DNA of 64,000 nt, from assembly GCA_031552765.1 (NCBI GenBank), contig JAVBME010000008.1, positions 66,095 through 130,094 on the forward strand, given 5' to 3'. Below, piece after piece: positions 2,720 to 64,000 of this stretch (the first letter of the stretch is position 1; each line of letters begins with the position of its first letter). The position numbers were made by a program, and so were the translations under genes. This stretch comes from Acidaminococcales bacterium. GTDB lineage: Bacteria; Bacillota; Negativicutes; Acidaminococcales; JAISLQ01. Under the pieces are notes generated by a model that saw nothing but the letters and a program-made list of their open reading frames with translations, made no database searches and was not told the DNA's origin.

Positions 2720-4684
2720 TTATTTGTCGAGCAATTTGCTCAGGTCAAATTTACTGCCGATAGAAGTAGTAAACTCATTATTTTCAGCAAGATATTCTTT
2801 GAATTCATTTTTTTCGGCATCATGCTTCGCCTGGGCGATGCTTAAAGATATTTTCTTGCTTTTTTTGTCTACGCCTAAGACTTTTACCTTTACCGGCTGT
2901 CCTTCTTTTAGGACTGATTCGGGTTTATCGATACGCTCTTCGGCGATTTCAGAGATATGTACGAGCCCTTCCGCATTGTTCTCCAGCAGTACAAAAACGC
3001 CGAACGGCAAGAACTTGCTTACTTTTCCTTCCAGTATTTGTCCTTCTTTGATACCGGCAATGACGCTAAACCACGGGTCTGGCTGCAAATCGCGCAGGCT
3101 TAAGGATATTTTTTTGTTTTCTACATCCACTTTTTGTACCAGTACTTGTACTTTGTCGCCGACATTAAGTATATCGGAAGGATGTTTTACCCGGTGCCAG
3201 GCCATATCGGAAATGTGCACAAGTCCGTCAACGCCGCCGATATCGATAAAAGCGCCAAAGTTGGCTAAACGTGATACAGTGCCTTCATATTTTTCGCCGG
3301 ATTTTATTTTGTTGTAAAATTCTTTTTCCTTAACTGCCTTCTCTTCTTTAAGTACTTCACGGCGAGAAAGCACAACCCGTTTTCTCGTTCCTTCATTTTC
3401 CAGTTCAATAACTTTGGCAGATATTTTTTGACCGACCATCGGTGAAAAATCTTCTATCCTGTGGACATCTACATGGGAGGCGGGTATAAAACCCCTCACG
3501 CCCAATACGTCTACCGTTATACCGCCTTTTACCACCGCGGTAACAAGCGTTTCCAGCGTCTCGCCGTTTTCTTGGGCGGCGGCCAGGCGTTCCCAGGCCA
3601 GCACGCTGTCGGCCCGTACTTTGGAAAGGATGACGCAACCGTCTTTATCGGGATTTATTATCATGGCGCTTATACTGTCGCCAACTTTGACCAGAGAGTT
3701 TAAATCGTCCGGAGGCAACAAAGACATTTCCGAACGGAGAATGATACCGTCGCTTTTGTGTTGTATATCGAGATACACCTCATCTTTGGCGATACTGCTT
3801 ACAACCCCTGTAATTATTTCTCCCGCCTTGATGTTAGCTATCGCGCCTTCACCGATTGTTTGCATTTCTTCCATTTTATTAATAACCTCCTCAATCAACC
3901 AATCTGGTGTAGACGCCCCGGCGGTCACACCTATATGTTTGCTGTTTTCCAGCATCTCCGACAATAGTTCGTCGGCGGTCTCGATAAATATGGTATTGGA
4001 GCAGTGTTCGGCAACAATATCACGCAGGTGGTTTGTATTGGCGCTGTTTTTTCCGCCGACTACTATCATGGTGTCGACATTTTTGGCCAATTCCACGGCT
4101 GCTTGCTGGCGTTCGCTGGTAGCCTTGCAGATGGTGCGGGCGACCTTGCTTTCGGAAGCTTTGTCGGTTATAAGGCTGCTTAGTTTTTGAAATGCATCTT
4201 CTGTGCAGGTGGTTTGTACGACTATACCATAGCGGCCGCCTGCTGGAAGGTTGTCCACCTCATCAGAACTGCCGATCACGATAGTGTTTGCTCCGCCCCA
4301 GGCTTTGATGCTTATCACTTCAGGATGCTTGGCCTCGCCTATTATCACTACCCGGTAGCCGTCCTGGCAAAATTTTTCCGCGGCCTCCTGGGCTTTCTTT
4401 ACATGCGGACAGGTGGCGTCTATTACCGTCAGCTCGCGGGCTTGGGCGATGTTATAACTTGACGGCCCTTCGCCATGTGAACGGAATATTACCTTGCTGC
4501 CTGCTTTTAGGCCGTAAAGTGAATCTACCGGTGTTATACCTTGTTTTTTTAAACGGTTGATCATTTGCGGGTTGTGGATGAGCGGGCCAAGAGTATAGGA
4601 ACCGGCGCCGCTTTCTGTGGCCAGGTTTACGGCGCGTTTTACTCCCTGACAAAAACCCATGTATTTAGCTTTGGTGATTTTCAA
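2720..4684 (-). CDS. ispH: bifunctional 4-hydroxy-3-methylbut-2-enyl diphosphate reductase (IspH/LytB) fused to ribosomal protein S1 repeats
   Basis: 654 aa. The N-terminus MGFCQGVKRAV plus a full IspH body is followed by several S1 domains (for example GTVSRLANFGAFIDIGGVDGLVHISD). The fusion is known in Clostridia and Negativicutes. Confidence 0.9.
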   Translation of the reverse strand: MKITKAKYMGFCQGVKRAVNLATESGAGSYTLGPLIHNPQMINRLKKQGITPVDSLYGLKAGSKVIFRSHGEGPSSYNIAQARELTVIDATCPHVKKAQEAAEKFCQDGYRVVIIGEAKHPEVISIKAWGGANTIVIGSSDEVDNLPAGGRYGIVVQTTCTEDAFQKLSSLITDKASESKVARTICKATSERQQAAVELAKNVDTMIVVGGKNSANTNHLRDIVAEHCSNTIFIETADELLSEMLENSKHIGVTAGASTPDWLIEEVINKMEEMQTIGEGAIANIKAGEIITGVVSSIAKDEVYLDIQHKSDGIILRSEMSLLPPDDLNSLVKVGDSISAMIINPDKDGCVILSKVRADSVLAWERLAAAQENGETLETLVTAVVKGGITVDVLGVRGFIPASHVDVHRIEDFSPMVGQKISAKVIELENEGTRKRVVLSRREVLKEEKAVKEKEFYNKIKSGEKYEGTVSRLANFGAFIDIGGVDGLVHISDMAWHRVKHPSDILNVGDKVQVLVQKVDVENKKISLSLRDLQPDPWFSVIAGIKEGQILEGKVSKFLPFGVFVLLENNAEGLVHISEIAEERIDKPESVLKEGQPVKVKVLGVDKKSKKISLSIAQAKHDAEKNEFKEYLAENNEFTTSIGSKFDLSKLLDK

Positions 4685-5289
4685 TGCTTATCATTCCTTA
4701 TCTGTGCTAATAATGATCCTATTTCCTGCATAAGACTGTCGGCTATCTGCTGTGGCGTGTCTTTTTCATCTAAATTTTCCGGCATTGGCAGCGGTTTGCC
4801 AAAAATAACAGTGATTTGGGGAAAAGGACGGGATAAAGAGATTTTTTCCGTACCGCTTATAGCGGCGGGAATGATCGTTGCTCCTGTTTTGCACGCCAGC
4901 ATGATGGCGCCCGGTTCGGCTTTACCCAGTGCGCCGTTTTTGCTGCGCGTGCCTTCGGGGAATATACCAAGCACCCTGCCAGACCGTAAGCGCTCCAACG
5001 CCGTTTTTATCGCAGCGCGGTCAGAAGTGCCGCGCCGCACAGGAAAAGCCCCCAGTTTACTTATTATGGCGGCAAAGACCGGGTTGCGGAAAAGTTCTAT
5101 TTTGGCCATGAAGTCTATCTTCCGGGCTTTGCAGGCGGTACCGAGCGTCGGTGGGTCAAGGTTGCTGACATGGTTGCTGGCAATAATAGCTGCGCCCTGC
5201 TGCGGCACGTTTTCTCCGCCAATAATCCTTAACCGGAAAAATATGGCGTAAATAAAGCCAAAGATGATTCTGGCCAGTTTATAAGACAT
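4681..5289 (-). CDS. plsC: 1-acyl-sn-glycerol-3-phosphate acyltransferase
   Basis: 202 aa with the NHVSNLD (Hx4D) acyltransferase motif and an FPEGTRS block. Confidence 0.85.
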   Translation of the reverse strand: MSYKLARIIFGFIYAIFFRLRIIGGENVPQQGAAIIASNHVSNLDPPTLGTACKARKIDFMAKIELFRNPVFAAIISKLGAFPVRRGTSDRAAIKTALERLRSGRVLGIFPEGTRSKNGALGKAEPGAIMLACKTGATIIPAAISGTEKISLSRPFPQITVIFGKPLPMPENLDEKDTPQQIADSLMQEIGSLLAQIRNDKH

Positions 5290-18969: not shown

Positions 18970-19195
18970 AATTAAAAATGATTGCGATGAAGGAAATAAG
19001 TATCTGCGATGTTTTTCCTAGAGAGCCGGGTCAGGTGCAAGCCGGTAAAAACTAACAGCGAAAGCCTCTCCCGAGCAGTATATGAAGAATATACCGCAAG
19101 CCGGCGATAAAGGCATTGAGTGTTGCTGGCAGCGTACAGCAGAACACAGGTGGTACCGCGGAATTTCCGTCCTGATTTTCAGGGCGGTTTTTTAT
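18970..19195 (+). promoter_or_regulatory. T-box riboswitch leader (tRNA-sensing transcription attenuator)
   Basis: Stem I base TTGCGATGAAGGAAATAAGTA (K-turn/AGTA). AG bulge and distal loop TAGAGAGCCGGGTCAGGTGCAAGCCGG. T-box sequence AACACAGGTGGTACCGCGG (19143-19161). Terminator CCGTCCTGA-ttt-TCAGGGCGG plus TTTTTT (19167-19194). Confidence 0.9.
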
Positions 19196-34939: not shown

Positions 34940-35135
34940 AAAAAAAGCCATACGGACATCAGAAAATGGTCGTATGACTTTTACATCTCTTCTACGCCCT
35001 TTCTCATCCAGACTATACTGTCGGTCCCGGAATCACACCGGGTCATGCTGCGCAAACAGCTCGCGGACTTTTACCGCCGGTAGGGAGTTGGCCGTGGCCT
35101 CACCCTGCCCCAAAGGCTACTTATTAAATTTAACA
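34940..35135 (-). promoter_or_regulatory. FMN riboswitch (RFN element) with terminator
   Basis: The minus strand reads GGGGCAGGGTGAGGCCACGGCCAACTCCCTACCGGCGGTAAAAGTCCGCGAGC...CCGGTGTGATTCCGGGACCGACAGTATAGTCTGGATGAGAAAGGG, which matches RFN conserved blocks. A CATACGAC/GTCCGTATG hairpin plus TTTTTTT lies at 34979-34940. Confidence 0.92.
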
Positions 35136-48136: not shown

Positions 48137-48300
48137 TAAAAAATAAAACCCCTTATTTGGGGTATGTTTTATAGTCACATTTCCCCATCTTGCGGTCGCG
48201 CCGCCGGAATTGGCACCGTTTGGCAAAAGCCATGGTTGCCGCGGTTTCATCGGGCCTTTCCCTCAACCAACTCTTGATGAGCATCATATTTAATTTAAAA
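48137..48300 (-). promoter_or_regulatory. SAM-I (S-box) riboswitch with terminator
   Basis: The minus strand reads CTCATCAAGAGTTGGTTGAGGGAAAGGCCCGATGAAACCGCGGCAACC...GGTGCCAATTCCGGCGG...AGATGGGG, which matches S-box blocks. The ACCCC-aaataa-GGGGT terminator with TTTTATTTTTT lies at 48170-48137. Confidence 0.92.
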
Positions 48301-53415: not shown

Positions 53416-53577
53416 AACAACACCTCGCAACATTATGAATAAATATAGAAATAAAATTCAAAGATTGGCAGGATATATTTTATCATGGAACAAGCTATTT
53501 AACAAGTTCTATCATTGACCGGCAGCTATATATGGCATATACTTAAACAAAATCTTCATTGGGGGAGCACTACAGCT

Positions 53578-55302
53578 ATGAATCTTGAGGGCATTGCCAT
53601 ATCGCTGCAAAAAGATTTTCTCTGCGAAAAACTGCCAGGCGCGCGTATAGATAAAATATATCAGCCGGAACGCCTTTCGCTGTTTTTCCAGTTAAGGAAT
53701 AATAACTCCAATATGTTTTTTTATGCAACTTGCGGAAACTCGCCACACATTCGCATAACAGATAAAACACCGGAAAATCCGGAAAATCCCCCCTCTTTTT
53801 GCATGTTGCTCAGGAAACATTTGGAAAATGGCCGGATAATGCAAATAGCCCAGCATAAACTGGACCGGATAATTATTATGGATATAGATACATTGGGCAA
53901 GGGTAAAAATATAGTAACAAAACAACTGGTTTTTGAGTTGACAGGAAAAAGCAGTAACATAATTTTTTTGCAGGACAATATTATCATTGATTGTTTAAAA
54001 CATATCGGACCGTCGGTCAGCCGTTTCAGGCAATTGCTGCCCGGCCGCGAATACATGCCGCCGCCGCAAAAAGAAGGTTTTAATATATTGTCGGCTCAGG
54101 CGCTAGAGATAGTCCACGCTTTGCCTGCAAGCGCTAAATCACTCAGTAAAAGTTTGATAGAACAGACATTGGGCATCGGTCCGCTCACCGCAAACGAGAT
54201 CGCCTGGCGCGCCGGCCTCCCACCCGACCTGCCGGCCGCTAATCTTGATGCAAAAGACAGCGTAGCTTTATGTGAGGCGATAGAAAGCATAGTACTGCCG
54301 ATAAAAAATAATGCCGCCCGCTCTTTCGTTGCTGTAGATAATGAAGGCGGCCTCCTTGCGGTAGCTCCTTTCGCGCCTCAGCATTTGCCGTCAGGACAAG
54401 TAAAAGAATTTGCCACAATGAATGCGGCAATCTCCTTTGCCATTAAGTTGCAACCGGCGAAAAGCCCTCTAAATGTCACCCTGTCTAAACAGGTTCGGAG
54501 CGAAATAACGCGCCTCGAAAAGAAAATGGATATCCTTAGCGAAGAAACAGTTGCGGCCCAGAATGCGGACAGGTTAAAAGAAACGGCCGATAATATAATG
54601 TCCCAGCTCTATGCCATAAAAAAAGGGGAAGAGCTTTGCCTTGTCACAGATATTTTTACCGGCGAACAGATAGAAATCAAACTGGATCCCTTGCTTACTC
54701 CGGTAGAAAATGCCCAGCGTTACTACAAACTATATAATAAGGCCAAACGCGCTGTCAGCCAATTGCAGCAGCAAACGCGCGAAAGCTCTGAATTGCTGGA
54801 TTACCTTATGGGGGTAGAGTTTTCTTTAGAAGAAGCAAAAACGTCCGGCGAGGTTTTGGAAATAAAAAATGAACTTCTTGCCGCCGGTATACTACAGGAA
54901 AAAACTTACCGCCCGCTTCGTACGCAAATAAGCCAACCCTGGAAAATAACTCTGGCGTCAGGGGCTATCATATATGTAGGAAAAAACAACCGGCAAAATG
55001 ACCAACTGACCTTTAAAACAGCAAAAGCAGGCGATCTGTGGCTGCATGCCAAAAACATCCCGGGCTCTCATGTAATATTGCAAAACAGCAGCCCGGACAA
55101 CCAGGAAGGCCTCTTTACCGCCGCGCTTTTGGCGGCTTGGTTTAGTAAGGCACGCAGATCTTCCAACATACCGGTCGATTACACATTTAAAAAACATGTC
55201 AAAAAACCGGCCGGCGCCCGGCCAGGCTTCGTCATTTACGAACAGCAGAAAACCATCCAAGTAACTACTGATGAAGAAAAAATCAAACACATACTCCAAT
55301 GA
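53578..55302 (+). CDS. rqcH: ribosome quality control protein RqcH (NFACT/FbpA family)
   Basis: The track ORF starts at 53515; ATG 53578 (MNLEGIAISLQKDF...) is the likely start. NFACT-N, a coiled coil and an NFACT-R/DUF814 block (LHAKNIPGSHVIL). Confidence 0.88.
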   Translation: MNLEGIAISLQKDFLCEKLPGARIDKIYQPERLSLFFQLRNNNSNMFFYATCGNSPHIRITDKTPENPENPPSFCMLLRKHLENGRIMQIAQHKLDRIIIMDIDTLGKGKNIVTKQLVFELTGKSSNIIFLQDNIIIDCLKHIGPSVSRFRQLLPGREYMPPPQKEGFNILSAQALEIVHALPASAKSLSKSLIEQTLGIGPLTANEIAWRAGLPPDLPAANLDAKDSVALCEAIESIVLPIKNNAARSFVAVDNEGGLLAVAPFAPQHLPSGQVKEFATMNAAISFAIKLQPAKSPLNVTLSKQVRSEITRLEKKMDILSEETVAAQNADRLKETADNIMSQLYAIKKGEELCLVTDIFTGEQIEIKLDPLLTPVENAQRYYKLYNKAKRAVSQLQQQTRESSELLDYLMGVEFSLEEAKTSGEVLEIKNELLAAGILQEKTYRPLRTQISQPWKITLASGAIIYVGKNNRQNDQLTFKTAKAGDLWLHAKNIPGSHVILQNSSPDNQEGLFTAALLAAWFSKARRSSNIPVDYTFKKHVKKPAGARPGFVIYEQQKTIQVTTDEEKIKHILQ

Positions 55303-55304
55303 TG

Positions 55305-55351
55305 AAAAACAGCAGGCAGCTTGAAAGATGGAAAGCTGCCCGCTGTTTTTT
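55305..55351. terminator. bidirectional terminator between convergent rqcH and the PAP2 gene
   Basis: AAAAACAGCAGGCAGCTT-gaaagatgg-AAGCTGCCCGCTGTTTTTT, about 13 bp of stem with one mismatch. Confidence 0.8.
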
Positions 55352-56096
55352 AATGTCCCAGTAAATGTTTTTTATTCATATTTATTCGCAGCTTAGCAAG
55401 CACATCTGGCTGCTCCACCAGCCTGTTTATCAATAGCAATATTGACCAGGCCAGCGCGGTGACAAAAAGCGTGTGACTTAAAAAATGCTCGCCTCTTAAC
55501 ATTTGGTAGATGCCCATATACCAGCCTAACCCCAAGGCTAACGCCCGCGCTATACGGCGCTTTTTTTCTTCGGCAAAACAAAAATACAATACCATCAAGG
55601 CCAGCCCCCCGCTGGCATGGCCGGCGGGAAAACCGGCGCCGCGCGAAATCTGCACAAAATTTGCCGGGTATTTTCTTAGCGCTGGCGCGTAAGGATTGGC
55701 GCCATTATAACGCTGTATCTGGTAAGGGCAATATACATTGGTGATATCTTTCAATATACCGACACAAGAAGGAATGAGCGCTAAGGCCAGAAAAATCTTA
55801 AGGAAATTTTTCCGCCATTGCAGGAAGGCTCCTGTTTTCCGTGAATATATGTATGCGCCAATATTCAGTGCAGCAAATATGATCAAAAATGTTTTTGGCA
55901 GTGTGTACAGCAAAAAACCCCATTGTTCGTGAAAAACCTTACTGATAAACCATTGCCCGGTCTGGCGGTTGAAGAACAAATCCTGTAACCAAAGGTCAAA
56001 AGGGGTAAAACTTTCGAAAAACAAAATTATCACCATAGCAAACATTGGAAAGGAAAGTTTTTTTAGAAATGATCTCTTCTCTTTCATAATAATCAT
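55350..56096 (-). CDS. PAP2 superfamily membrane phosphatase (lipid phosphatase type)
   Basis: 248 aa, polytopic, with FPAGHASGG (PSGH-like) and RGEHFLSHTL blocks. The start is either ATG 56096 or, better spaced from the RBS, ATG 56087. Confidence 0.75.
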   Translation of the reverse strand: MIIMKEKRSFLKKLSFPMFAMVIILFFESFTPFDLWLQDLFFNRQTGQWFISKVFHEQWGFLLYTLPKTFLIIFAALNIGAYIYSRKTGAFLQWRKNFLKIFLALALIPSCVGILKDITNVYCPYQIQRYNGANPYAPALRKYPANFVQISRGAGFPAGHASGGLALMVLYFCFAEEKKRRIARALALGLGWYMGIYQMLRGEHFLSHTLFVTALAWSILLLINRLVEQPDVLAKLRINMNKKHLLGH

Positions 56097-56161: not shown

Positions 56162-57103
56162 TTACAAAGTTATATCTGCAGCACCTGTCAGGGTCTGCTT
56201 AGCCTGGCTGATTATCCTCTCAATAACTTCTTTGCAGGGTTTTATATCTTTTAAAACATAGAGGCTCTGTCCTACCTGTACGGCGCCGTTTTCCACATCG
56301 CCGTCTACCGAACCTTTGCGGTTGGTACCGGCCGCCATTTGGTTGAGTTCATCCTGCGGCGCTCCGCTGACTTCTTTAGCCATGAAACGCTCAGTAAAAG
56401 CGTTGCGTAGGCTGCGCACGCCATAGTTGCGCGAATAGCCGGTCACTACCGAGTCGGTATCTACGGCTTCCACTATTTTCTGTTTGAAATCCGGATGAGC
56501 CGGGCACTCGTCGGTGAGCAGGAACCTTGAACCCATCTGTACGCCTGATGCTCCCATCAAAAGAGCCGCCGCCATGGCCCGACCGTCGGATATGCCGCCT
56601 GCTACTAGTACCGGCAAATTGACCAATGGTATGACATTGCTCATCAAGGCCATTGAGGTAAGGGTGCCAATATGGCCGCCGCCTTCCATACCTTCGATGA
56701 CTATCGCGTCCGCGCCTTTTTCTTCCACTCTTTTTGCCAGTTTTACACTGGGCACTACAGGAATTATTTTGACGCCGCTCTTTTTAAGCTGCTCAAAAAA
56801 TGGCACCGGATTGCCCGCGCCGATAGTCATAAAGGCGACTTTTTCTTCACAGGCTACATCGACTATTTTTTCCACCTGCGGCGTCATGAGGGTGATATTT
56901 ATGCCAAAGGGTTTGTCGGTAAGTTTTTTTGCTTTTTGTATTTCTTCACGCGACCATTCCACCGTGCGCCCGCCTGTGCCAATTATGCCGGCGCCGCCGG
57001 CGTTGGAGACTGCCGCCGCCAATACGGCGTCTGATGCCCAAGCCATGCCCCCCTGTATTATCGGATATTTTATGCCTAATAACTGCGTCAAACGGTTTTG
57101 CAT
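56162..57103 (-). CDS. NPD-fold FMN oxidoreductase (nitronate monooxygenase / FabK-like enoyl-ACP reductase family)
   Basis: The start is reassigned to ATG 57103 (MQNRLTQLLGIKYPIIQGGMAW), preceded by AAGGAGAGG. A GGHIG block is present. Confidence 0.75.
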   Translation of the reverse strand: MQNRLTQLLGIKYPIIQGGMAWASDAVLAAAVSNAGGAGIIGTGGRTVEWSREEIQKAKKLTDKPFGINITLMTPQVEKIVDVACEEKVAFMTIGAGNPVPFFEQLKKSGVKIIPVVPSVKLAKRVEEKGADAIVIEGMEGGGHIGTLTSMALMSNVIPLVNLPVLVAGGISDGRAMAAALLMGASGVQMGSRFLLTDECPAHPDFKQKIVEAVDTDSVVTGYSRNYGVRSLRNAFTERFMAKEVSGAPQDELNQMAAGTNRKGSVDGDVENGAVQVGQSLYVLKDIKPCKEVIERIISQAKQTLTGAADITL

Positions 57104-57243
57104 TTCATTCCTCTCCTTTTGAGCATAATTGTAAAAATACACTGTTGTTTTCAGTGATACCGTATACATAGTATCGCAGAAAACTCTTGTAACTGTCAAA
57201 TATAAGAATTTTTTTCCGCTACTTTTCTTTTTAATACATTATG

Positions 57244-57258
57244 TTATAATAGTTATCG
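57244..57258 (+). promoter_or_regulatory. extended -10 promoter element overlapped by a Fur-family-like box
   Basis: TGt-TATAAT lies at 57242-57250. TTATAATAGTTATCG matches the 7-1-7 Fur consensus TGATAATnATTATCA at 11 of 14 specified positions. Confidence 0.4.
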
Positions 57259-57303: not shown

Positions 57304-58557
57304 TTGCGCTCCCAACTGGATATCAATAACACTATTTTTGACATTACAGAAAAACATCCTGAAACCGTCGATTTTTTCGTCGCCAACGGTTTCCCCCAGT
57401 TTTCCGACAATCAAATGAGAAGTTTATTAGGTAAAGCAGTAACTTTGCGGGAAGCATTATTAAGCAAAAGAATCAATCATGAGGTTTTTTTACAAAAACT
57501 TGATGATATCATCACGCAAAACAGCATTGCTATTGAGCTGGGCCTGACCGAGGCCAAACGGGAAAACGGCGGCGCTATCCGTATTGAGGGCGTGTTGCCC
57601 TGCCCTATCCGCATACCGTTTTTGGAAAAGTTCAGCCGCTGGCTGGAGGAAAATGAAAATAAACTGGGATTTACGGCCGACTTTGATTTGCGTCCGGCCA
57701 GCATGGGCGTTTCCTGGATAAAGGAGCGCATAATTGCCAATAAAGAAAACGCTGAAGAAAAGCTGACCGATATATTTATGTCGGCCGGCTTTGAATTGTT
57801 TTTTGAGAACAATCTGATTAAAAAATATAAAGACAGGGGCATTTTTGAAAATATTACAGGTGTTGCTAAATTGAATACCGATTTTGACAATCAGCATATC
57901 GATTTAAAAGACCCGGACAATCATTACGCGGTCATCGGCGTAGTGCCGGCAATTTTTATAGTTAATAAGACCCTCCTTAGCAACCGCCCCCTTCCTGCGA
58001 CATGGGAAGACCTGCTGCGGCCGGAGTTTGCCGACTGTGTATCTTTGCCGCTGGAAGACCTCGACATGTTTGACGCCATATTATTAAATATCTATAAAAA
58101 ATACGGTGCAGACGGCGTAGCTAAGCTGGGTAAAGCTATGCTCAAAAGCATGCACCCGGCAGCCATGCTCAAATCTTACCTGGCTGGCGACGCGAAAAGC
58201 GTACCGGTAGTTTCCGTGCTGCCTTATTTTTTCGCCAAAACAATGCCGCCAGGCAGTCCGTTTGTCACAGTCTGGCCTAAAGACGGAGCGATAATCAGCC
58301 CCATATATTTGATAACGAAAAAATCCAGCCAACACCTGACCAAACCCTTTGTTGATTTTCTTTTTTCCAAGGAGATCGGCGATGTTTTCTCCGTGCAGGG
58401 CTTTTTCCCCTCCACCCATCCGCAAGTGGACAACGGTTTTGGTGAAGGGCAGAACTTCATGTGGCTGGGCTGGGACTACATAAAAGAAAACGATATCGGC
58501 AGGCTTATTGCCCAAACAAAACATATCTTCTACAAAGAAATGGAGGAAAAAAAATAG
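57304..58557 (+). CDS. DUF1858-like N-terminal domain fused to a periplasmic-binding-protein-like (ABC substrate-binding fold) domain; no signal peptide
   Basis: 417 aa with a TTG start 7 nt after GAGGTG. The N-terminus NTIFDITEKHPETVDFFVANGF...TLREAL is DUF1858-like. The body carries SBP-type blocks (AVIGVVPAIFIVNK, PATWEDLLRPEF). No hydrophobic leader or lipobox is present. Confidence 0.6.
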   Translation: MRSQLDINNTIFDITEKHPETVDFFVANGFPQFSDNQMRSLLGKAVTLREALLSKRINHEVFLQKLDDIITQNSIAIELGLTEAKRENGGAIRIEGVLPCPIRIPFLEKFSRWLEENENKLGFTADFDLRPASMGVSWIKERIIANKENAEEKLTDIFMSAGFELFFENNLIKKYKDRGIFENITGVAKLNTDFDNQHIDLKDPDNHYAVIGVVPAIFIVNKTLLSNRPLPATWEDLLRPEFADCVSLPLEDLDMFDAILLNIYKKYGADGVAKLGKAMLKSMHPAAMLKSYLAGDAKSVPVVSVLPYFFAKTMPPGSPFVTVWPKDGAIISPIYLITKKSSQHLTKPFVDFLFSKEIGDVFSVQGFFPSTHPQVDNGFGEGQNFMWLGWDYIKENDIGRLIAQTKHIFYKEMEEKK

Positions 58558-58558
58558 C

Positions 58559-59254
58559 ATGGATCTGGCGATTTTTTCCGGCCCTCCATCTTCCGGCAAG
58601 ACCTCCGTCATTTTAAAAGTGATAGATGCTTTGCAAAAGAGAAATGTTTGCGCCGGCGTCGTAAAATTTGACTGCCTGTACACCGATGACGACCTTTCGT
58701 ATAAAAAAGCCGGCATACCTGTGAAAAAAGGACTGTCCGGCGCATTATGCCCCGACCATTTTTTTGCCGCCAATATCGAAGAAGTTGTCGCTTGGGGAAA
58801 AAATTTATCTTTAGACCTTCTTGTTACCGAATCGGCCGGGTTGTGCAACCGCTGTTCTCCTTATTTGAAAGAAACAACAGCCGTCTGCGTCATCGATAAC
58901 CTGTCCGGCATAAATACGCCGAAAAAAATTGGCCCGATGCTCAAAGCCGCCGATATTGCGGTAATAACCAAGGGTGATATCGTATCCCAGGCGGAGCGTG
59001 AAGTTTTTGCCACCAGGGTCATGTCGGTAAACCCCAAAGCCAGGGTCATGCATGTGAATGGTTTGACCGGACAGGGCGCTTTTGAGTTGAGCAAGCATAT
59101 TTTTGAAAGCAAAAAAGACATCTCTTCTGTAGAAAATATGCAGCTGAGGTTTTCCATGCCGGCCGCGCTCTGCTCTTACTGCCTGGGCGAAACGCGTATC
59201 GGCGAAAGTTACCAACTGGGCAATATCAAAAAAATAGATTTGGCAGGCGGCTGA
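58559..59254 (+). CDS. G3E-class P-loop GTPase related to UreG/HypB/CobW metallochaperones
   Basis: The start is reassigned to ATG 58559, 1 nt after the upstream stop. Motifs are GPPSSGKTS, LCPDH, LLVTESAGLCNRC, ITKGD and a C-terminal CSYC. Confidence 0.7.
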   Translation: MDLAIFSGPPSSGKTSVILKVIDALQKRNVCAGVVKFDCLYTDDDLSYKKAGIPVKKGLSGALCPDHFFAANIEEVVAWGKNLSLDLLVTESAGLCNRCSPYLKETTAVCVIDNLSGINTPKKIGPMLKAADIAVITKGDIVSQAEREVFATRVMSVNPKARVMHVNGLTGQGAFELSKHIFESKKDISSVENMQLRFSMPAALCSYCLGETRIGESYQLGNIKKIDLAGG

Positions 59255-59256
59255 CT

Positions 59257-60267
59257 ATGGAAAATATTAAAATAAAAAACCTTGAAACCAAATACCCCTT
59301 TATACATAATTATTTTTCCAGCAATAAAATAGACGTTTCTGCGGCCAAAGAAAAAAGCTTCCGGCAATTGCTGGATTCTTACAGCCCGCTAAAATTAGAA
59401 GAAGAGGCCATAGACAAAGAAAAACTTATAGCAGATATGCATGTTTTCGTCGAGCAAATGTCTTCATTCCTCGGTATAAAAAATGACCGGCTGTCCTCTT
59501 TGACCATAGTTGCCGGCCAGGATAAAAACGGCGCGTCGGAAAATTTTGGCGAAATAACGATAAATTCTTCGGAAATAGTGTCCATCGTCGGGCCTACCGG
59601 CTCGGGTAAAAGCCGGCTCTTGGCCGATATAGAAGTGATAGCGCAAGAAGATACCCCTACCCGGCGCACCATACTGCTGGACGGGCAAAAAAATAAAGAA
59701 AGAAGCTTTTCTTCCGCCAATAATAAACTGGTGGCCCAGCTTTCGCAGAACATGAATTTCGTCATGGACCTTACGGTTGAGGAATTCCTCTCTTTGCACG
59801 CGGAAAGCCGTATGGTGACCGACGCGGAAAAACGCATTGAACGTATCATCAACGAGGCCAACCAGCTGTCCGGCGAATCATTCGGCCCGGATACCCACCT
59901 GACCAGTTTGAGCGGTGGCCAGTCGCGCGCCCTCATGATAGCCGACACCGCCATTTTGAGCACCTCCCCTGTCGTTTTGATCGACGAGATAGAAAATGCC
60001 GGCGTTGACCGCAAAAAAGCTTTACAACTGCTTTTGAACGAAGACAAGATAGTCTTTATTTCTACTCATGACCCGGTTTTGGCGCTCATGGCCGACAAAC
60101 GGCTGGTCATAAAAAACGGCGGCATAGATAAGGTAATCGGTACCAGCACGGAAGAAAAAGGGTTGCTAAACGAATTGGAAACCATAGAAACATCCATGCA
60201 AAATATGCGGCAAAAATTACGTTCAGGAGGCAGGGTAGGAGCAAAAGACCTGCCCCGCTATCTTTGA
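59257..60267 (+). CDS. soluble ABC-type ATPase with a ~100 aa N-terminal extension; no cognate permease nearby
   Basis: 336 aa starting 2 nt after the upstream stop. Walker A GPTGSGKS, signature LSGGQ, Walker B VVLIDE, H-loop STHD. Confidence 0.8.
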   Translation: MENIKIKNLETKYPFIHNYFSSNKIDVSAAKEKSFRQLLDSYSPLKLEEEAIDKEKLIADMHVFVEQMSSFLGIKNDRLSSLTIVAGQDKNGASENFGEITINSSEIVSIVGPTGSGKSRLLADIEVIAQEDTPTRRTILLDGQKNKERSFSSANNKLVAQLSQNMNFVMDLTVEEFLSLHAESRMVTDAEKRIERIINEANQLSGESFGPDTHLTSLSGGQSRALMIADTAILSTSPVVLIDEIENAGVDRKKALQLLLNEDKIVFISTHDPVLALMADKRLVIKNGGIDKVIGTSTEEKGLLNELETIETSMQNMRQKLRSGGRVGAKDLPRYL

Positions 60268-60318: not shown

Positions 60319-62229
60319 ATGAAAAAGAAAAAACTTGTCACCGGAGCCCTTGCCTGTTTTATGGCTGCGGCCAACCCCAGCGCTTTTGCCGAGGAAAAAC
60401 TCGAGACCTTCGAACTTGACCCGGTAGTCGTTACCGCCAGCAAAACGCCCAGGCACGCCAAAGAAGTTTCCGCCGCCGTGCAAGTCATTACTAAAAGTGA
60501 GATAGAGTCTATCGGCGCCGCCAACCTCGAACAGGCTTTGCACCTGGCTACCGGCGTACAAATCGGCACAAATTCCGGTACAGGTAAGAAAAGCCCGATG
60601 ATACGCGGTTTTGACTCGCGTTTTTCCACTATTTTGATCAACGGCCGCCGCCTGGCGGCCGAACCTGACCAGTTATATGAACTAAACCGCATCACTTTGG
60701 CCAATGTGGAACGCATCGAAATAGTCCGCGGGCCTATGAGCGTCCTTTACGGCACGGAAGCGATGGGCGGCGTCATAAATATCATAGTCAGGAACTCCGA
60801 CACCCGTTCGCTGCTCTTGAGCGCCGACCTTGGCACATACGGCGGCGATAATAATCCGCAAAATTACAATATTGACTTCCAGTCCGGCCAAACCGGACGC
60901 TTTCGCTATTCATTATACGGATCTTACCGCGACAACAACGACCCTATGTACAAAAGCAACGGCCTGACCTACGAGCCATACGGCTGGCACAGCAATATCG
61001 GCGGCCGGGTGGAATATGACCTGTCGAAAACCGAAGTGCTGGCCCTTGATATTGCTTACGAAGAAGAACGCACCAACGAAATATCCAATATGGCTAACCT
61101 TAACCAGCAAACCCTCGACAATAACCGCCGCAATGAGCAATCTTTGAGTTATACAAGGAAAACCGACAATACAGAACTGTTTTTCCGCTATTATAACGGC
61201 GTACTTGATAAAGACGTCGACCAATTAAATAAAAACACCGGTCAGCTATTGCAGCCCGGCAGTTGGGTACGGGCCGAGCGTACCATGCGCGCCTTGGAAG
61301 GCCGTCTGACCCGCAAAGTCAACGATCAGCACACAGTAACTTTCGGCGCCGAATACCGGCCGGAGAAGTTTAAGGGCACGTCGGTCAATACCGGCGAAGG
61401 TATTTTTAACACTACATATAATGGTGTAACAAAAACCGGTTCTACCGCCTGGCTGGACTATTTCGGCATTTACCTTATGGATGAATGGCAGGCGACCGAC
61501 AGGTGGCGTATTATTACCGCCCTCAGGTATGACGACAGCAACAAATTCGAAAGCGACTGGAGCCCGAAACTCGGCCTTATTTATCAGTTCAACGACAAAT
61601 CCCGTTTGAAAGCCAATGCCGGGCACGCCTTCCGCAGCCCTACCCCTAATCAGCTTTATAATAACCAACCTACCTCTTTGGGCAACCCCAACCTGAAATC
61701 GGAAAAAGCCAATTCTTATGATATTTCTTACGAACAGGACTACAGCCGTTCGGGTTATAAACTCACCTATTTTTATAACGATATATCAAACCTTATCGAA
61801 GTGCAAAACAACAGATACCAAAATATCGCCAAAGCAACCATCCAGGGTATAGAAGCTGAATACCTGACCCGTTTCAACAACAACTGGTCGTGGATAAATG
61901 CCTGGGCCTATCTTGACGCAACCGACGACACCACCGGGCAACGCCTGAAAGGCCGCTCGCGCAATGTGCTTACTTCCCGCATCGCCTATTCGGACAACAA
62001 ATATTTTTCCGCTAGTTTCTGGGGCGAGCTATACCACGACTATCTGCCTACTACGCCGACCATCAGCACGCGTGAACGCTCCTATGTCACATGGAACCTA
62101 GCCGCTACCTATTCGCTCAATAAAAACACCAAGTTTATTTTAGGCGTATACGACATATTCGACAAAATGGACGAAGACGCCAATGTTATGGGCCGCTACG
62201 CACACCTGACTGTACAGTTTAAATTCTGA
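60319..62229 (+). CDS. TonB-dependent outer-membrane receptor (BtuB-sized)
   Basis: The start is reassigned to ATG 60319 (MKKKKLVTGALACFMAAANPSAFA), preceded by GGAGGAG. TonB box DPVVVTAS, a plug domain (IRGFDSRFSTILINGRRL), a beta-barrel repeat pattern and a C-terminal ...TVQFKF. Confidence 0.9.
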   Translation: MKKKKLVTGALACFMAAANPSAFAEEKLETFELDPVVVTASKTPRHAKEVSAAVQVITKSEIESIGAANLEQALHLATGVQIGTNSGTGKKSPMIRGFDSRFSTILINGRRLAAEPDQLYELNRITLANVERIEIVRGPMSVLYGTEAMGGVINIIVRNSDTRSLLLSADLGTYGGDNNPQNYNIDFQSGQTGRFRYSLYGSYRDNNDPMYKSNGLTYEPYGWHSNIGGRVEYDLSKTEVLALDIAYEEERTNEISNMANLNQQTLDNNRRNEQSLSYTRKTDNTELFFRYYNGVLDKDVDQLNKNTGQLLQPGSWVRAERTMRALEGRLTRKVNDQHTVTFGAEYRPEKFKGTSVNTGEGIFNTTYNGVTKTGSTAWLDYFGIYLMDEWQATDRWRIITALRYDDSNKFESDWSPKLGLIYQFNDKSRLKANAGHAFRSPTPNQLYNNQPTSLGNPNLKSEKANSYDISYEQDYSRSGYKLTYFYNDISNLIEVQNNRYQNIAKATIQGIEAEYLTRFNNNWSWINAWAYLDATDDTTGQRLKGRSRNVLTSRIAYSDNKYFSASFWGELYHDYLPTTPTISTRERSYVTWNLAATYSLNKNTKFILGVYDIFDKMDEDANVMGRYAHLTVQFKF

Positions 62230-62316: not shown

Positions 62317-62438
62317 GATTGTTATTTATAATTGGCAAAATCTTTCTTTAATCTGACTATTGAGTTATAATAATATACATATTCACAAAAAACAAGCCAA
62401 AAACAAGTGTGTTATGTATCGAAAGAGAGGTTTTTCAA

Positions 62439-64000
62439 TTGAGACGTTCAGATGATGTAAAAAAAGGCTCCACCAGGGCGGCGCACCGTTCTTTGTTCAG
62501 CGCGCTGGGTTTTACCAAAGAAGATATGGACAAGCCGCTTATCGGCATAGTAAATGCGCAAAATGAAATAATCCCCGGCCACCTGCACCTTGATATAATC
62601 GCCAAAGCAGTAAAAGAAGGCGTATGGGCGCACGGCGGCGTACCGGTAGAAGTTCCGGCCATCGGCATCTGCGACGGTATCGCCATGGGGCACCAGGGTA
62701 TGAAATACCCCCTCCCGAGCCGCGAACTTATCGCCGACAGCATCGAAGCCATGGCCAACGGCCATTGTTTTGACGCCCTGGTGCTTATACCCAATTGCGA
62801 CAAAATCGTCCCCGGCATGCTGATGGCAGCGGCTAGGCTCAACATCCCCTGCGTGGTCGCCAGCGGCGGCCCTATGCTGGCCGGTCGTTTTGCCGGTAAA
62901 GATGTCGGCGTGAGCAATGTTTTTGAGGCGGCCGGACGCTTTGAAGCAGGCAAAATAACCGTAGACGAGCTGGAAGAAATAGAGTCTTCCGCCTGCCCCG
63001 GTTGCGGCTCCTGTTCCGGCATGTATACGGCCAACACCATGAACTGTCTGGCCGAAGTTTTAGGCCTGGCTTTGCCCGGCAACGGCACCATACCCGCCGC
63101 CCACCAGGGCGCGCGTACGGCGCTTTCCCGCACCGCCGGCAAACAGGTCATGCAAATGCTGGAGAAGAATATCTGCCCGCGCGACATCATGACCCTTGAC
63201 GCTTTCAAAAACGCTATCACGGTAGACATGGCTATCGGCGGCTCCAGCAATACCACCCTGCACCTGCCCGCCATCGCCCACGAGGCCGGGATAGAGCTCT
63301 CGCTCGACTTATTCAACGATATTGCTAAAACTACCCCTTATATCGCCTCACTAAGCCCGGGCGGCTCACACTTCATCCAGGAACTGAACGAGGCGGGCGG
63401 CATCCCGGCGGTCATGAAAGAACTGGACAAGAAAAAACTCATGCACACCGGCTGCATGACCGTAACAGGCCAAACCTTGACCGACAATCTGACAAAAGTA
63501 CAAAACCGCAACACCGAAGTCATCCGTCCGATAGACAAGCCTTACCGGCCCACCGGCGGCATAGCCATCCTTCGCGGCAATCTGGCTCCTGACGGCGCGG
63601 TCGTAAAAGAAAGCGCAGTAGCCGAAGAAATGCTGGTGCATTCCGGCCCGGCGCGGGTTTATGATTCGGAAGAGCAGGCAATCGATGCCATCATCGGCAA
63701 AAAAATAAAGAGCGGCGACGTTATAGTCATCCGCTACGAAGGGCCTAAAGGCGGCCCCGGCATGAAAGAAATGCTCAATCCCACCTCCGTCCTGGCCGGC
63801 ATGGGGCTCGACAAAGAAGTGGCCCTACTGACCGACGGCCGCTTTTCCGGCGCGACGCGCGGCGCTTGCATCGGTCATGTCTCACCGGAAGCCATGGAAG
63901 GCGGGCTTATCGGCCTCATACAAGAAGGCGACATCATAGAGATAGATATTCCCAACCGCAAACTAGCCGTCAAACTGGCTGATGAGGACATCGCCAAGCG
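62439..64000 (+). CDS. ilvD: dihydroxy-acid dehydratase, N-terminal ~520 aa; runs off the right edge
   Basis: Absent from the ORF track because there is no stop in the window. Manual translation from TTG 62439 (after GAAAGAGAGG) gives [47 protein letters not shown]...CDGIAMGH...[10 protein letters not shown]. Confidence 0.9.

Follow-up and report, generated by a model that had tools for sequence, protein, structure and literature searches.

GTPases of the G3E class combine a Walker A motif GxxxxGK[ST] with a glutamate that replaces the aspartate of the G3/Walker B motif (ExxG), and reviews divide the G3E metallochaperones into the four subfamilies UreG, HypB, MeaB and COG0523 (PMC9164220). 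The defining elements of COG0523 proteins are a conserved CxCC and, at the C-terminus, a CobW_C domain, and one member, Nha3, handles iron (PMC9164220). The closest described relatives of the protein discussed here are HypB (Methanocaldococcus jannaschii structure 2hf8) and UreG (4hi0, 5xkt). In the 64-kb stretch of DNA that we analyzed (the window), this protein is encoded by the middle gene of a compact cassette. Its features are:

58559–59254, plus strand: gene 2, the GTPase (231 aa; ATG at 58559, TGA at 59252–59254)
58580–58606, plus strand: Walker A/G1 motif GPPSSGKTS (residues 8–16), with G8, G13 and K14 invariant
58748–58759, plus strand: C64-P-D-H67, which aligns with the Cys-His pair that binds metal in HypB and with Cys-Pro-His in UreG
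58829–58861, plus strand: G3/Walker B motif E91-S-A-G-L-C96-N-R-C99-S-P101, which contains the family-defining Glu and a CxxC and aligns with ENVGNLICP of HypB
58967–58978, plus strand: G4-like T137-K-G-D140, preceded by Ile, a TKxD variant of NKxD read from the sequence
59171–59182, plus strand: C205-S-Y-C208, inside the conserved C-terminal tail LRfxMPxAxCSYCLGEtRIGe

ATG 58559 is preceded at a distance of 13 nt by a GGAGG ribosome-binding site, and the orthologues in our alignment start at the same methionine. The initial annotation, made from the sequence of this gene, had listed the motifs GPPSSGKTS, CPDH, ESAGLCxxC, ITKGD and a C-terminal CSYC. All of them are present, and since they are conserved in 27 sequences with identities down to 29%, they cannot be attributed to chance. 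In this set residues G8, G13, K14, P65, E91, C96, E146, G173 and C205 are invariant, and C64, D66, A93, G94, L95, R98, C99, P101, D132, T137, P201 and C208 are conserved to at least 90%, so that the cysteine and histidine positions singled out initially did hold in homologues. The same pattern is seen across 80 orthologues. K138 and D140 of the G4-like motif vary among the most divergent members, and we therefore consider guanine specificity to be likely, short of proven. By analogy, C64-P-D-H67 is expected to lie at a dimer interface. The AlphaFold2 model of the protein has a mean pLDDT of 87.8, with the C-terminal CxxC tail modeled at low confidence. Because of this low confidence, a composite four-cysteine site that includes the tail CxxC is a guess. 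In one divergent variant (L008) the GTPase tail is followed by an appended PF04060 Fe–S domain with four cysteines.

To place the protein in a branch, we used the cut-offs of curated profiles, rankings by profile and by fold, and motifs. The protein matches PF02492 (cobW/HypB/UreG) with 42.2 bits over residues 4–164 (Pfam cut-off: 20.7), and this domain is present in all homologues of the GTPase. Its SIMIBI G-domain fold is closest to solved G3E structures: the six best Foldseek matches of the AlphaFold2 model are HypB and UreG proteins, led by HypB 2hf8, 4lps and 2wsm and UreG 4hi0 and 5xkt (E = 1.9e-11 to 3.6e-9), with 18–24% identity. A family profile searched against the PDB gave the same ranking (HypB: 5e-17, UreG: 9e-15), with weak matches to MeaB-like proteins (3e-8 to 3e-4) and to YjiA (2e-5). 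Profile alignment places C64 and H67 on the Cys-His pair of 2hf8 and the family consensus ETAGLCxRCSP, which contains C96 and C99, on ENVGNLICP of the same protein, in agreement with the motif order proposed at the outset. Judged by sequence and predicted fold, the product of gene 2 is a true G3E GTPase. The initial annotation had also asked whether the best matches might fall in P-loop families other than G3E, and they do not. An apparent similarity to RecA stems from concatenated RecA chains in which weak P-loop matches are summed (per-domain E = 0.1–10), and we regard it as an artefact.

The four named branches do not accommodate this protein, as had been suspected. Its scores remain below the equivalog cut-offs of the curated NCBIfam models for hypB (TIGR00073, 52.7 bits versus 121.2) and ureG (TIGR00101, 27.9 bits versus 204.2). 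No CxCC motif was found in the sequence, and in Pfam the protein matches PF02492 alone, with no CobW_C, PF03308 (MeaB) or other C-terminal domain. HypB is the best match by sequence and by fold, and is of similar size (~220 aa); the Walker A motif, the G3 glutamate, the Cys-His pair and the cysteine after ExxG all align with it, the latter residues with the metal ligands of its G-domain. Unlike HypB, the GTPase contains an additional Cys96 and, at its C-terminus, an additional CxxC tail, it has CPDH where HypB has CH, and its constant partners are a solute-binding-like protein and an ABC ATPase rather than hyp or hydrogenase genes. UreG shares the G3E fold and carries Cys-Pro-His where the GTPase has Cys-Pro-Asp-His, but the latter motif contains a one-residue insertion (Asp), and no ureDEF or urease genes are found nearby. 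With COG0523 proteins (CobW, YjiA, ZigA, Nha3) the GTPase has in common the PF02492 domain and the putative general role of a metal-responsive G3E GTPase, but neither of their two defining elements. MeaB/MMAA differs likewise, and no mutase genes occur among the neighbors of the GTPase. The family is also compact, with 467 representative clusters (50% identity) at E ≤ 1e-3 among 1.84 billion proteins. Since the protein falls below the hypB and ureG cut-offs, shares 18–24% identity with these proteins and belongs to a compact family, we read it as a separate, fifth and unnamed G3E branch next to HypB and UreG.

In one respect the initial annotation has to be revised. The gene is not an orphan, but the middle one of three tightly packed genes that form a conserved cassette, and natural fusions of the GTPase to one of its partners exist. 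The two partner genes in the window are:

57304–58557, plus strand: gene 1 (417 aa), DUF1858 (residues 6–61), then SBP_bac_6 (residues 153–396), a class II solute-binding fold resembling FbpA
59257–60267, plus strand: gene 3, a soluble ABC ATPase (336 aa; Pfam ABC_tran, 1e-17)
59263–59463, plus strand: a cryptic second DUF1858-like domain in gene 3 (residues 3–69, within the N-terminal ~95 residues), detected by hhalign

The TAG of gene 1 ends at 58557, one nucleotide before the ATG of the GTPase gene, and the start/stop gaps across the cassette measure 1–2 nt. The same order (DUF1858 plus FbpA-like binding protein, GTPase, DUF1858-like domain plus ABC ATPase) recurs in approximately 76 of 81 loci, drawn from at least eight phyla. 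Of the three proteins the GTPase varies least, with an identity of 70–79% between phyla, which is unusually high, and its family extends over at least 565 species in at least eight phyla. The cassette is widespread in anaerobes, with Fusobacterium nucleatum, Treponema, Filifactor and Peptostreptococcus among the carriers. In two proteins (P0122 and P0124) the GTPase is fused to the ABC ATPase, and in one more it is fused to the binding protein. One locus (L092) shows the permuted order GTPase–ABC ATPase–binding protein, and here both partners have lost their DUF1858-type domains together. Our literature search found no publication on this three-gene cassette.

The product of gene 1 matches PF08984 (2.1e-12) and PF13343 (1.5e-75). 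Its AlphaFold2 model (pLDDT 87.3) retrieves ferric-binding proteins as leading Foldseek matches at 10–17% identity. The protein does not have the ferric site, Tyr-Tyr/His/Glu, that FbpA proteins conserve, and the cysteine of its LPCP motif (Cys100) is invariant. The protein begins with its DUF1858 domain, and we found no signal peptide, lipobox or hydrophobic leader; from its sequence the binding protein is predicted to be cytoplasmic. Gene 3 encodes a complete set of ABC motifs (Walker A, Q-loop, signature, Walker B and H-loop) and has no membrane domain. The N-termini of the ABC proteins align with those of the binding proteins (hhalign probability 92%, E = 6.7e-7), and seven of 18 gene 3 members match PF08984 weakly.

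The regions upstream of the cassette suggest when these genes may be expressed. The consensus of the HcpR2 box is GTAAC-N4-GTTAC (PMC1274295), and HcpR is a heme-based sensor of nitric oxide (NO) (PMC12750200). Perfect copies of this box occur 39 times in 903 kb of cassette loci, compared to ~0.9 expected. Approximately 27 of them are located 50–120 nt upstream of gene 1 and nine upstream of hcp; in Treponema, two boxes precede the GTPase gene. When membership in the HcpR regulon was examined by locus, on the basis of a box at a class II position upstream of the operon, 25 of 72 cassette upstream regions contained a perfect box, and six more contained one with a single mismatch. In 15 of 81 loci hcp itself follows the cassette directly on the same strand, 14 loci contain Crp/Fnr regulators and six contain Rrf2 regulators. 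From these boxes and neighbors we predict that in many anaerobes HcpR activates the cassette operon together with hcp. The 2005 paper on the HcpR regulon does not list the cassette. The predicted co-regulation is a functional lead that was absent from the initial annotation.

The window copy deviates from this pattern. Its upstream region contains the following element, identified by reading the sequence and by comparison with two close Negativicute relatives, L094 (Sporomusaceae) and L096 (Acetonema):

57242–57250, plus strand: candidate promoter −10 element in the extended form, TGtTATAAT

This sequence is likely to be the −10 element of the cassette. Both relatives contain an HcpR box (GTAACACAGGTTAC in L094 and GTAACCCTGGCTAC in L096) 22–23 nt upstream of their −10 elements. 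At the position of this box, nucleotides 57209–57222 of the window read TTTTTTTCCGCTAC, in which the right half-site alone is left, and the best HcpR2 match in the cassette upstream region has three mismatches. No hcp, crp or rrf2 gene was found within the 64 kb of the window. Since box, hcp, crp and rrf2 are missing here, the link to NO at this particular locus is drawn from its relatives. A Fur box was also considered, but the sole match at the cassette promoter has three mismatches, overlaps the −10 element and is unconvincing.

We favor, at about even chances, the explanation that the three genes form one cytoplasmic module with the GTPase as its core subunit, and that this module is an NO-induced, NTP-driven system for delivery or repair of iron or Fe–S centers, in which the GTPase would be a metal-binding fifth G3E branch that possibly serves Hcp. 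The metal, the client, the direction of transfer and the contacts between subunits that we infer would be as follows. The binding protein would hold an iron, iron–sulfur or iron–nitrosyl species through the invariant Cys100. Importer ATPases open their binding proteins by acting through membrane domains; here, the ABC dimer may open the binding protein by closing on ATP. A dimer of the GTPase would then accept the metal at C64, H67, C96 and C99, possibly with C205 and C208 of the tail, and GTP hydrolysis would hand the metal to the client. HypB and UreG release nickel on GTP hydrolysis. The likeliest clients would be Fe–S proteins damaged by NO, or Hcp's hybrid cluster. The more specific proposal that the GTPase, the soluble ABC ATPase and the cytoplasmic protein of periplasmic type make up a single complex, a metallocofactor machine of a kind not recognized before, which rebuilds iron or Fe–S centers after NO damage, with the Hcp hybrid cluster as a possible client, is put forward tentatively and with more doubt than trust. 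Hints of iron or Fe–S chemistry are the FbpA-like fold of the binding protein, the PF04060 domain of L008 and the ferredoxin gene next to it, cysteine desulfurase genes near the cassette in five loci, and genes for a TonB-dependent receptor, Peripla_BP_2 or FecCD proteins, which neighbor the cassette in the window, in Acetonema and in L092.

Two groups of known systems resemble this proposal in part. YtfE/RIC/ScdA, which repair iron centers, and other DUF1858/ScdA_N proteins are likewise associated with NO-responsive regulons, and helical domains of the DUF1858/ScdA_N type occur in both partners of the GTPase; we take ScdA_N to be related to DUF1858. However, the cassette encodes no hemerythrin di-iron domain, and two NTPases and a binding protein would do the work instead. 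In the SufBCD and CooC systems a soluble ABC ATPase (SufC) or a P-loop NTPase (CooC) drives the assembly of iron clusters. In contrast to these, the ABC ATPase of the cassette is not SufC-like in an NCBIfam scan, its second NTPase is of the G3E and not of the MinD type, and there is no scaffold similar to SufB or SufD.

Iron is not the only metal that could be handled, since nickel, zinc or cobalt would fit the Cys/His chemistry of the GTPase equally well. The protein may be a divergent Ni, Zn or Co metallochaperone of the HypB/UreG type that serves an enzyme of one of these metals, with flanking genes that store or supply the metal and without a special connection to NO or iron. In sequence and fold it is indeed nearest to HypB and UreG, both nickel chaperones, it keeps the Cys-His and Cys ligands found in the G-domain of HypB, the JGI name for one homologue is "Ni2+-binding GTPase", and no HcpR box precedes the copy in the window. 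We nevertheless consider this explanation unlikely: hyp, hydrogenase, urease or other Ni-enzyme genes are not recurrent near the 81 loci, hyp and hydrogenase genes are also missing from the loci annotated with Pfam, the neighbors and boxes that do recur indicate hcp, HcpR and Rrf2, and the scores of the GTPase are far under the HypB and UreG equivalog cut-offs.

A narrower form of the favored explanation carries a similarly low probability. It holds that the cassette is a dedicated factor for maturation or repair of the hybrid [4Fe-2S-2O] cluster of Hcp, comparable to CooC for CO dehydrogenase (CODH). Hcp is a homologue of CODH, the client of CooC. As a member of the Prismane/CODH family, it has relatives that require an NTPase chaperone (PMC6344411). 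The direct succession of cassette and hcp, which is found in several phyla, and the occurrence of the same HcpR box upstream of both argue for such a role, but the majority of cassettes are located away from hcp, and the divergent loci L090 and L008 adjoin a radical SAM enzyme and a ferredoxin instead. Furthermore, functional Hcp occurs in organisms that lack the cassette. E. coli, for example, makes active Hcp without it, and a strict role in Hcp maturation is therefore not required in general.

It is very improbable that the three genes encode an ordinary ferric-iron ABC importer with a permease encoded elsewhere and the GTPase as an accessory. The databases do name the binding protein "ABC transporter substrate-binding protein" or "ABC-type Fe3+ transport system", its fold is FbpA-like, and a TonB-dependent receptor adjoins the cassette in the window and in Acetonema. 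Against this stand the missing signal peptide and lipobox of a protein that starts with a cytoplasmic DUF1858 domain, the fusion of the ATPase to a cytoplasmic GTPase in P0122 and P0124, the unrelated flanks of the cassette, and the lack of any recurrent permease family around the 81 loci. The iron-transport annotation of the partners is misleading. Equally remote is an NTPase module for signaling or regulation, in which the binding protein would detect a small ligand and some other process would be controlled without movement of metal. Cytoplasmic SBP-like domains do serve as sensors in some regulators and no function is known for DUF1858, but none of the three proteins has a DNA-binding or signaling output domain in Pfam and the metal-handling Cys/His ligand set of G3E proteins is strictly conserved.

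If the proposal of a single complex that rebuilds iron or Fe–S centers is correct, the GTPase would represent a fifth functional G3E subfamily beyond UreG, HypB, MeaB and COG0523, and the first G3E GTPase with an ABC ATPase as its partner. Co-regulation with hcp, as predicted here, provides a testable entry to the protection and rebuilding of iron centers in NO-exposed strict anaerobes, among them oral and gut pathogens and commensals that meet NO derived from the host or from nitrate, and it also bears on the assembly of Hcp's hybrid cluster. A cytoplasmic binding protein worked by an ABC ATPase that has no membrane domain would be a new architecture to study in its own right.

Finally, the cassette in the window is followed by a further gene:

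60319–62229, plus strand: a TonB-dependent outer-membrane receptor with plug and beta-barrel domains (Pfam)

A gap of 51 nt in which we found no terminator separates this gene from gene 3, and the receptor and the cassette are probably transcribed together. Its scores reach none of the curated equivalog cut-offs (best: TonB-B12, 218 bits versus 600). Control by a riboswitch, including cobalamin control of the receptor, was discarded, as an Rfam scan of the window returned T-box, FMN and SAM elements only, all of them distant. A role as a defense system was discarded as well, since PADLOC returned generic ABC-ATPase similarity alone. The receptor is missing from the 81 other loci and is a lineage-specific addition outside the conserved cassette. 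In Acetonema, a different receptor is encoded upstream of the cassette.

The open reading frame from ATG 58559 to TGA 59252–59254 encodes a GTPase of 231 residues. A GGAGG ribosome binding site lies 13 nt 5′ of the start codon, the stop codon of the upstream gene ends at 58557, one base ahead of the ATG, and the downstream gene begins two bases past the GTPase stop. All motifs that the initial annotation had read from this protein were found at the residues it named:

Residues 8–16: GPPSSGKTS
Residues 64–67: C64-P-D-H67
From residue 91: E91-SAGL-C96-NR-C99-SP
From residue 137: T137-KGD
Residues 205–208: C205-SY-C208

In an alignment of 27 family members with identities as low as 29%, residues G8, G13, K14, P65, E91, C96, E146, G173 and C205 are invariant (27 of 27), and C64, D66, A93, G94, L95, R98, C99, P101, D132, T137, P201 and C208 are conserved to at least 90%. 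The same residue conservation is found among 80 orthologues taken from genomes. The Cys and His positions singled out by the initial annotation are thus conserved in homologues, and because the motifs persist throughout the 27-member alignment, they did not arise by chance in a single protein.

The GTPase matches the Pfam CobW/HypB/UreG nucleotide-binding domain with 42.2 bits (cut-off 20.7). An AlphaFold2 model computed from the family alignment has a mean pLDDT of 87.8, with residues 1–200 predicted confidently and the C-terminal tail poorly. Foldseek's six top PDB matches to this model all belong to HypB (three organisms) or UreG (two organisms), with E-values of 1.9e-11 to 3.6e-9 and 18–24% identity; SRP-type GTPases and MMAA come next. 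The family profile matches M. jannaschii HypB (5e-17), UreG (9e-15), MeaB-like proteins (3e-8) and YjiA (2e-5). Profile alignment places C64 and H67 onto the Cys-His pair of HypB, and the family motif ETAGLCxRCSP onto HypB ENVGNLICP. Each of the three metal ligands in the HypB G-domain therefore has a counterpart in the GTPase, which shares with HypB the fold, the Cys-His pair and the Cys after ExxG. An apparent kinship to RecA was rejected: the leading PDB entries were artificial RecA concatemers, with weak matches per repeat (per-domain E-values 0.1–10).

G3E GTPases comprise four subfamilies with defining features (PMC9164220). The protein under study reaches 52.7 bits with the HypB equivalog model (cut-off 121.2) and 27.9 bits with that of UreG (cut-off 204.2), and the domain search returned no match to the MeaB family. 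Unlike COG0523 proteins, it has neither the defining CxCC motif (by sequence) nor the C-terminal domain (by domain search). Judged by these sequence features, the GTPase appears to lie outside every named G3E branch. The initial annotation was essentially right in assigning the protein to the G3E type, given the Pfam domain and the HypB/UreG fold and profile matches, and its view that none of the four classical branches fits is borne out by the sub-cut-off scores and missing features. The family has many members yet is compact: a word-indexed search matched more than 6,400 proteins, the best being 74–79% identical, and 467 representative clusters (50% identity) were found at E ≤ 1e-3 among 1.84 billion proteins. 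Its sole database name is "GTP-binding protein".

The GTPase had also been described as an orphan, a misjudgment of its context, as the gene is the core of a conserved three-gene cassette with the following partners:

57304–58557: binding protein gene (417 aa; N-terminal DUF1858 and SBP_bac_6 solute-binding domain)
59257–60267: ABC ATPase gene (336 aa; without membrane domain)
59263–59463: cryptic second DUF1858-like domain in the ABC ATPase (aa 3–69, by hhalign)

In a Clostridium species and in Galacturonibacter the three genes recur in this order, their stops and starts abutting or overlapping, amid completely different neighbors. When a single genome was scanned for each species, the GTPase turned up in at least 565 species. 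The best 80 of these loci come from Clostridia, Tissierellia and Halanaerobiales; from Fusobacterium and Leptotrichia; from spirochaetes, Treponema among them; from Bacteroidales (Marinifilum, Labilibaculum); from Cloacimonadota; from Izemoplasmatales and Mycoplasmatota; and from Aminicenantes and Fermentibacteria. With the three window proteins as tblastn queries, about 76 of 81 loci showed the order binding protein–GTPase–ATPase. In these searches conservation is highest in the GTPase (70–79% identity), followed by the ABC ATPase (51–65%) and the binding protein (35–54%); across the best 80 loci of the species scan, GTPase identity to the window copy is 69–78%. Natural fusions join the GTPase to the ABC ATPase (P0122, 613 aa; P0124, 509 aa) or to the binding protein (P0188). 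Distant relatives retain the GTPase–ABC pair in other arrangements. Locus L092 reads Crp/Fnr regulator, GTPase, ABC, binding protein; L090 (3806–7233) reads paralogous cobW-like gene, MoaA-like radical SAM gene, GTPase, ABC; and L008 (5421–7241) reads ABC, GTPase with an extra 4-Cys PF04060 Fe-S domain, 2×[4Fe-4S] ferredoxin. The binding protein gene is absent from both L008 and L090. Pairing of the GTPase with a soluble ABC ATPase is obligatory, and a cytoplasmic FbpA-like protein is usually added. A gene call on a short JGI contig (L009, 1134 nt) joins a C-terminal GTPase fragment to a cysteine desulfurase-like class V aminotransferase; on so short a contig a gene-calling artefact is indistinguishable from a real fusion.

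The binding protein starts with DUF1858 and carries no signal peptide. The folds nearest to its model (pLDDT 87.3) are periplasmic ferric-binding proteins (FbpA, FutA, cFbpA) at just 10–17% identity, with sugar-phosphate, PLP and polyamine binders close behind. The FbpA-type Tyr-Tyr/His/Glu ferric ligands are not conserved. Cys100 (motif LPCP), at the first strand-helix junction, is invariant, and many Asp and aromatic residues are also conserved. The ATPase contains all canonical ABC motifs. Pfam finds nothing in the first ~95 residues of the window ATPase, yet profile-profile comparison matches this region to DUF1858 of the binding protein (hhalign, probability 92%, E 6.7e-7); weak PF08984 matches occur in 7 of 18 ATPase orthologues. 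The two partners thus carry paired DUF1858 domains. In L092 DUF1858 is missing from the binding protein and the N-terminal extension from the ATPase, so the two domains come and go together, which suggests that they act together. Since no permease family recurs beside the cassette (clustered ORFs of 83 non-redundant loci), annotation of these partners as an ABC importer is almost certainly wrong.

Clustering all ORFs of these 83 loci identified Hcp, Crp/Fnr-type and Rrf2-type regulators and cysteine desulfurases as the sole recurrent neighbors. The gene for Hcp (Prismane family, E 4.6e-181) lies downstream on the same strand in 15 loci; Crp/Fnr-type regulators occur near 14 cassettes, Rrf2-type regulators near six and cysteine desulfurases near five. 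GTAAC-N4-GTTAC is the predicted HcpR2 consensus for hcp in Clostridia, Bacteroides, Thermotogales and Treponema (Rodionov et al., PMC1274295). Of 72 usable upstream regions, 25 have a perfect HcpR2 box 50–120 nt before the first cassette gene, and six others contain a box with one mismatch. Across all loci (903 kb) we counted 39 perfect boxes, where about 0.9 are expected: about 27 lie 5′ of the cassette, 9 lie 5′ of hcp, two precede the GTPase gene in those Treponema loci that have no binding protein, one precedes an Rrf2 gene, and two lie elsewhere, one of these at the edge of a contig and a short way 5′ of the cassette. F. nucleatum, Leptotrichia, Marinifilum, spirochaetes and an Aminicenantes genome are among those with a box. 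The box ends 22–23 nt upstream of the –10 element wherever one is recognizable, a spacing that corresponds to the class II activator position. Other palindromes occupy this place in loci without the box:

About –95 from gene 1: GTTGT-N4-ACAAC or GTTG-N6-CAAC (L012, L013, L017, L018, L020, L021, L023, L028, L033, L034, L036, L041; also L001, L014, L015)

GTTGT-N4-ACAAC is found in 12 Lachnospiraceae loci and GTTG-N6-CAAC in three more; both are plausibly variant Crp/Fnr sites. HcpR-type boxes and adjacency to hcp mark the cassette in many lineages. HcpR senses NO through heme and activates hcp (PMC12750200). Because of the boxes and this sensor function, the cassette is predicted to belong to the NO-responsive HcpR regulon in many lineages, and we consider it probable that it does respond to NO there. 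It is not among the regulon members in the 2005 HcpR paper (PMC1274295), and the literature searched contained no study of it. Rrf2 regulators before the cassette are a possible second type of NO-responsive control:

L053, L068, L070, L082 (about 3950–4750): Rrf2-family regulator
L073 (about 4311–4787): Rrf2-family regulator
L086 (about 4296–4745): Rrf2-family regulator

These loci belong to Cloacimonadota and some spirochaetes. The Cloacimonadota loci L053, L068 and L070, in which hcp comes after the cassette, have a small cupin-like gene between regulator and cassette, as does L082.

We are highly confident that the GTPase, a HypB/UreG-like G-domain with an enlarged and strictly conserved Cys/His set, represents a new G3E branch within a conserved cytoplasmic module of three proteins. 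HypB and UreG bind metal at a Cys/His site in the dimer interface and release it upon GTP hydrolysis, and in ABC importers closure of the nucleotide-binding domains opens the binding protein. By analogy, the binding protein may hold an iron, iron-sulfur or iron-nitrosyl species, the ABC ATPase would open it, and the GTPase dimer would take up the cargo and deliver it to NO-damaged Fe-S proteins or Hcp. Delivery or repair of iron or Fe-S clusters is a tentative assignment, at best evenly balanced. A serious rival would read the same G-domain as a Ni, Zn or Co chaperone with some other client. Import is unlikely for genes without a recurrent permease, and a role as regulator or defence system is also unlikely. 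The GTPase stands at the core of a widespread three-gene system, so far unstudied, with components mis-annotated as iron transport parts; as a relative of the G3E metallochaperones, it offers a specific, testable link to nitrosative-stress biology.

Acetonema longum and a Sporomusaceae bacterium provide the nearest named relatives of the window binding protein (54–55% identity), which marks the window as DNA of a Negativicute. The surroundings of the window copy are:

53515–55302: NFACT/RqcH-type protein gene
55350–56096: PAP2 phosphatase gene
56162–57199: FabK-like NMO-family enzyme gene, divergent from the cassette
57242–57250: cassette promoter, perfect extended –10 element TGtTATAAT
60319–62229: TonB-dependent receptor gene, 3′ of the ATPase gene
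About 62410–64000: IlvD-like dihydroxy-acid dehydratase gene, running past the window end

The 64-kb window contains no hcp, Crp/Fnr or Rrf2 gene, and no HcpR box precedes its cassette, the best match having three mismatches. The box position reads GTAACACAGGTTAC in Sporomusaceae L094, GTAACCCTGGCTAC in Acetonema and TTTTTTTCCGCTAC in the window, where the right half-site GCTAC alone is left (region 57209–57250). This may be a decayed HcpR box before an activator-independent, constitutive promoter. The sole Fur-like sequence there is a weak match located at the –10 element itself. The NFACT/RqcH, PAP2, FabK-like and IlvD-like genes do not recur beside the cassette in other loci. The Negativicute origin of the window explains the outer-membrane receptor; the gap between ATPase and receptor genes is 51 nt, and no terminator was found in it. 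A. longum has a different receptor (L096 4751–6673; 33% identity) and a Peripla_BP_2 protein upstream of its cassette, and a FecCD/Peripla_BP_2 transporter adjoins that of L092. Such neighbors are repeated but weak hints at a link to iron-chelate, heme or corrinoid uptake. An Rfam scan of the window placed no riboswitch at the cassette locus; it recovered three elements above gathering threshold that are unrelated to the cassette:

18978–19177, forward strand: T-box leader
34992–35121, reverse strand: FMN riboswitch
48182–48283, reverse strand: SAM riboswitch
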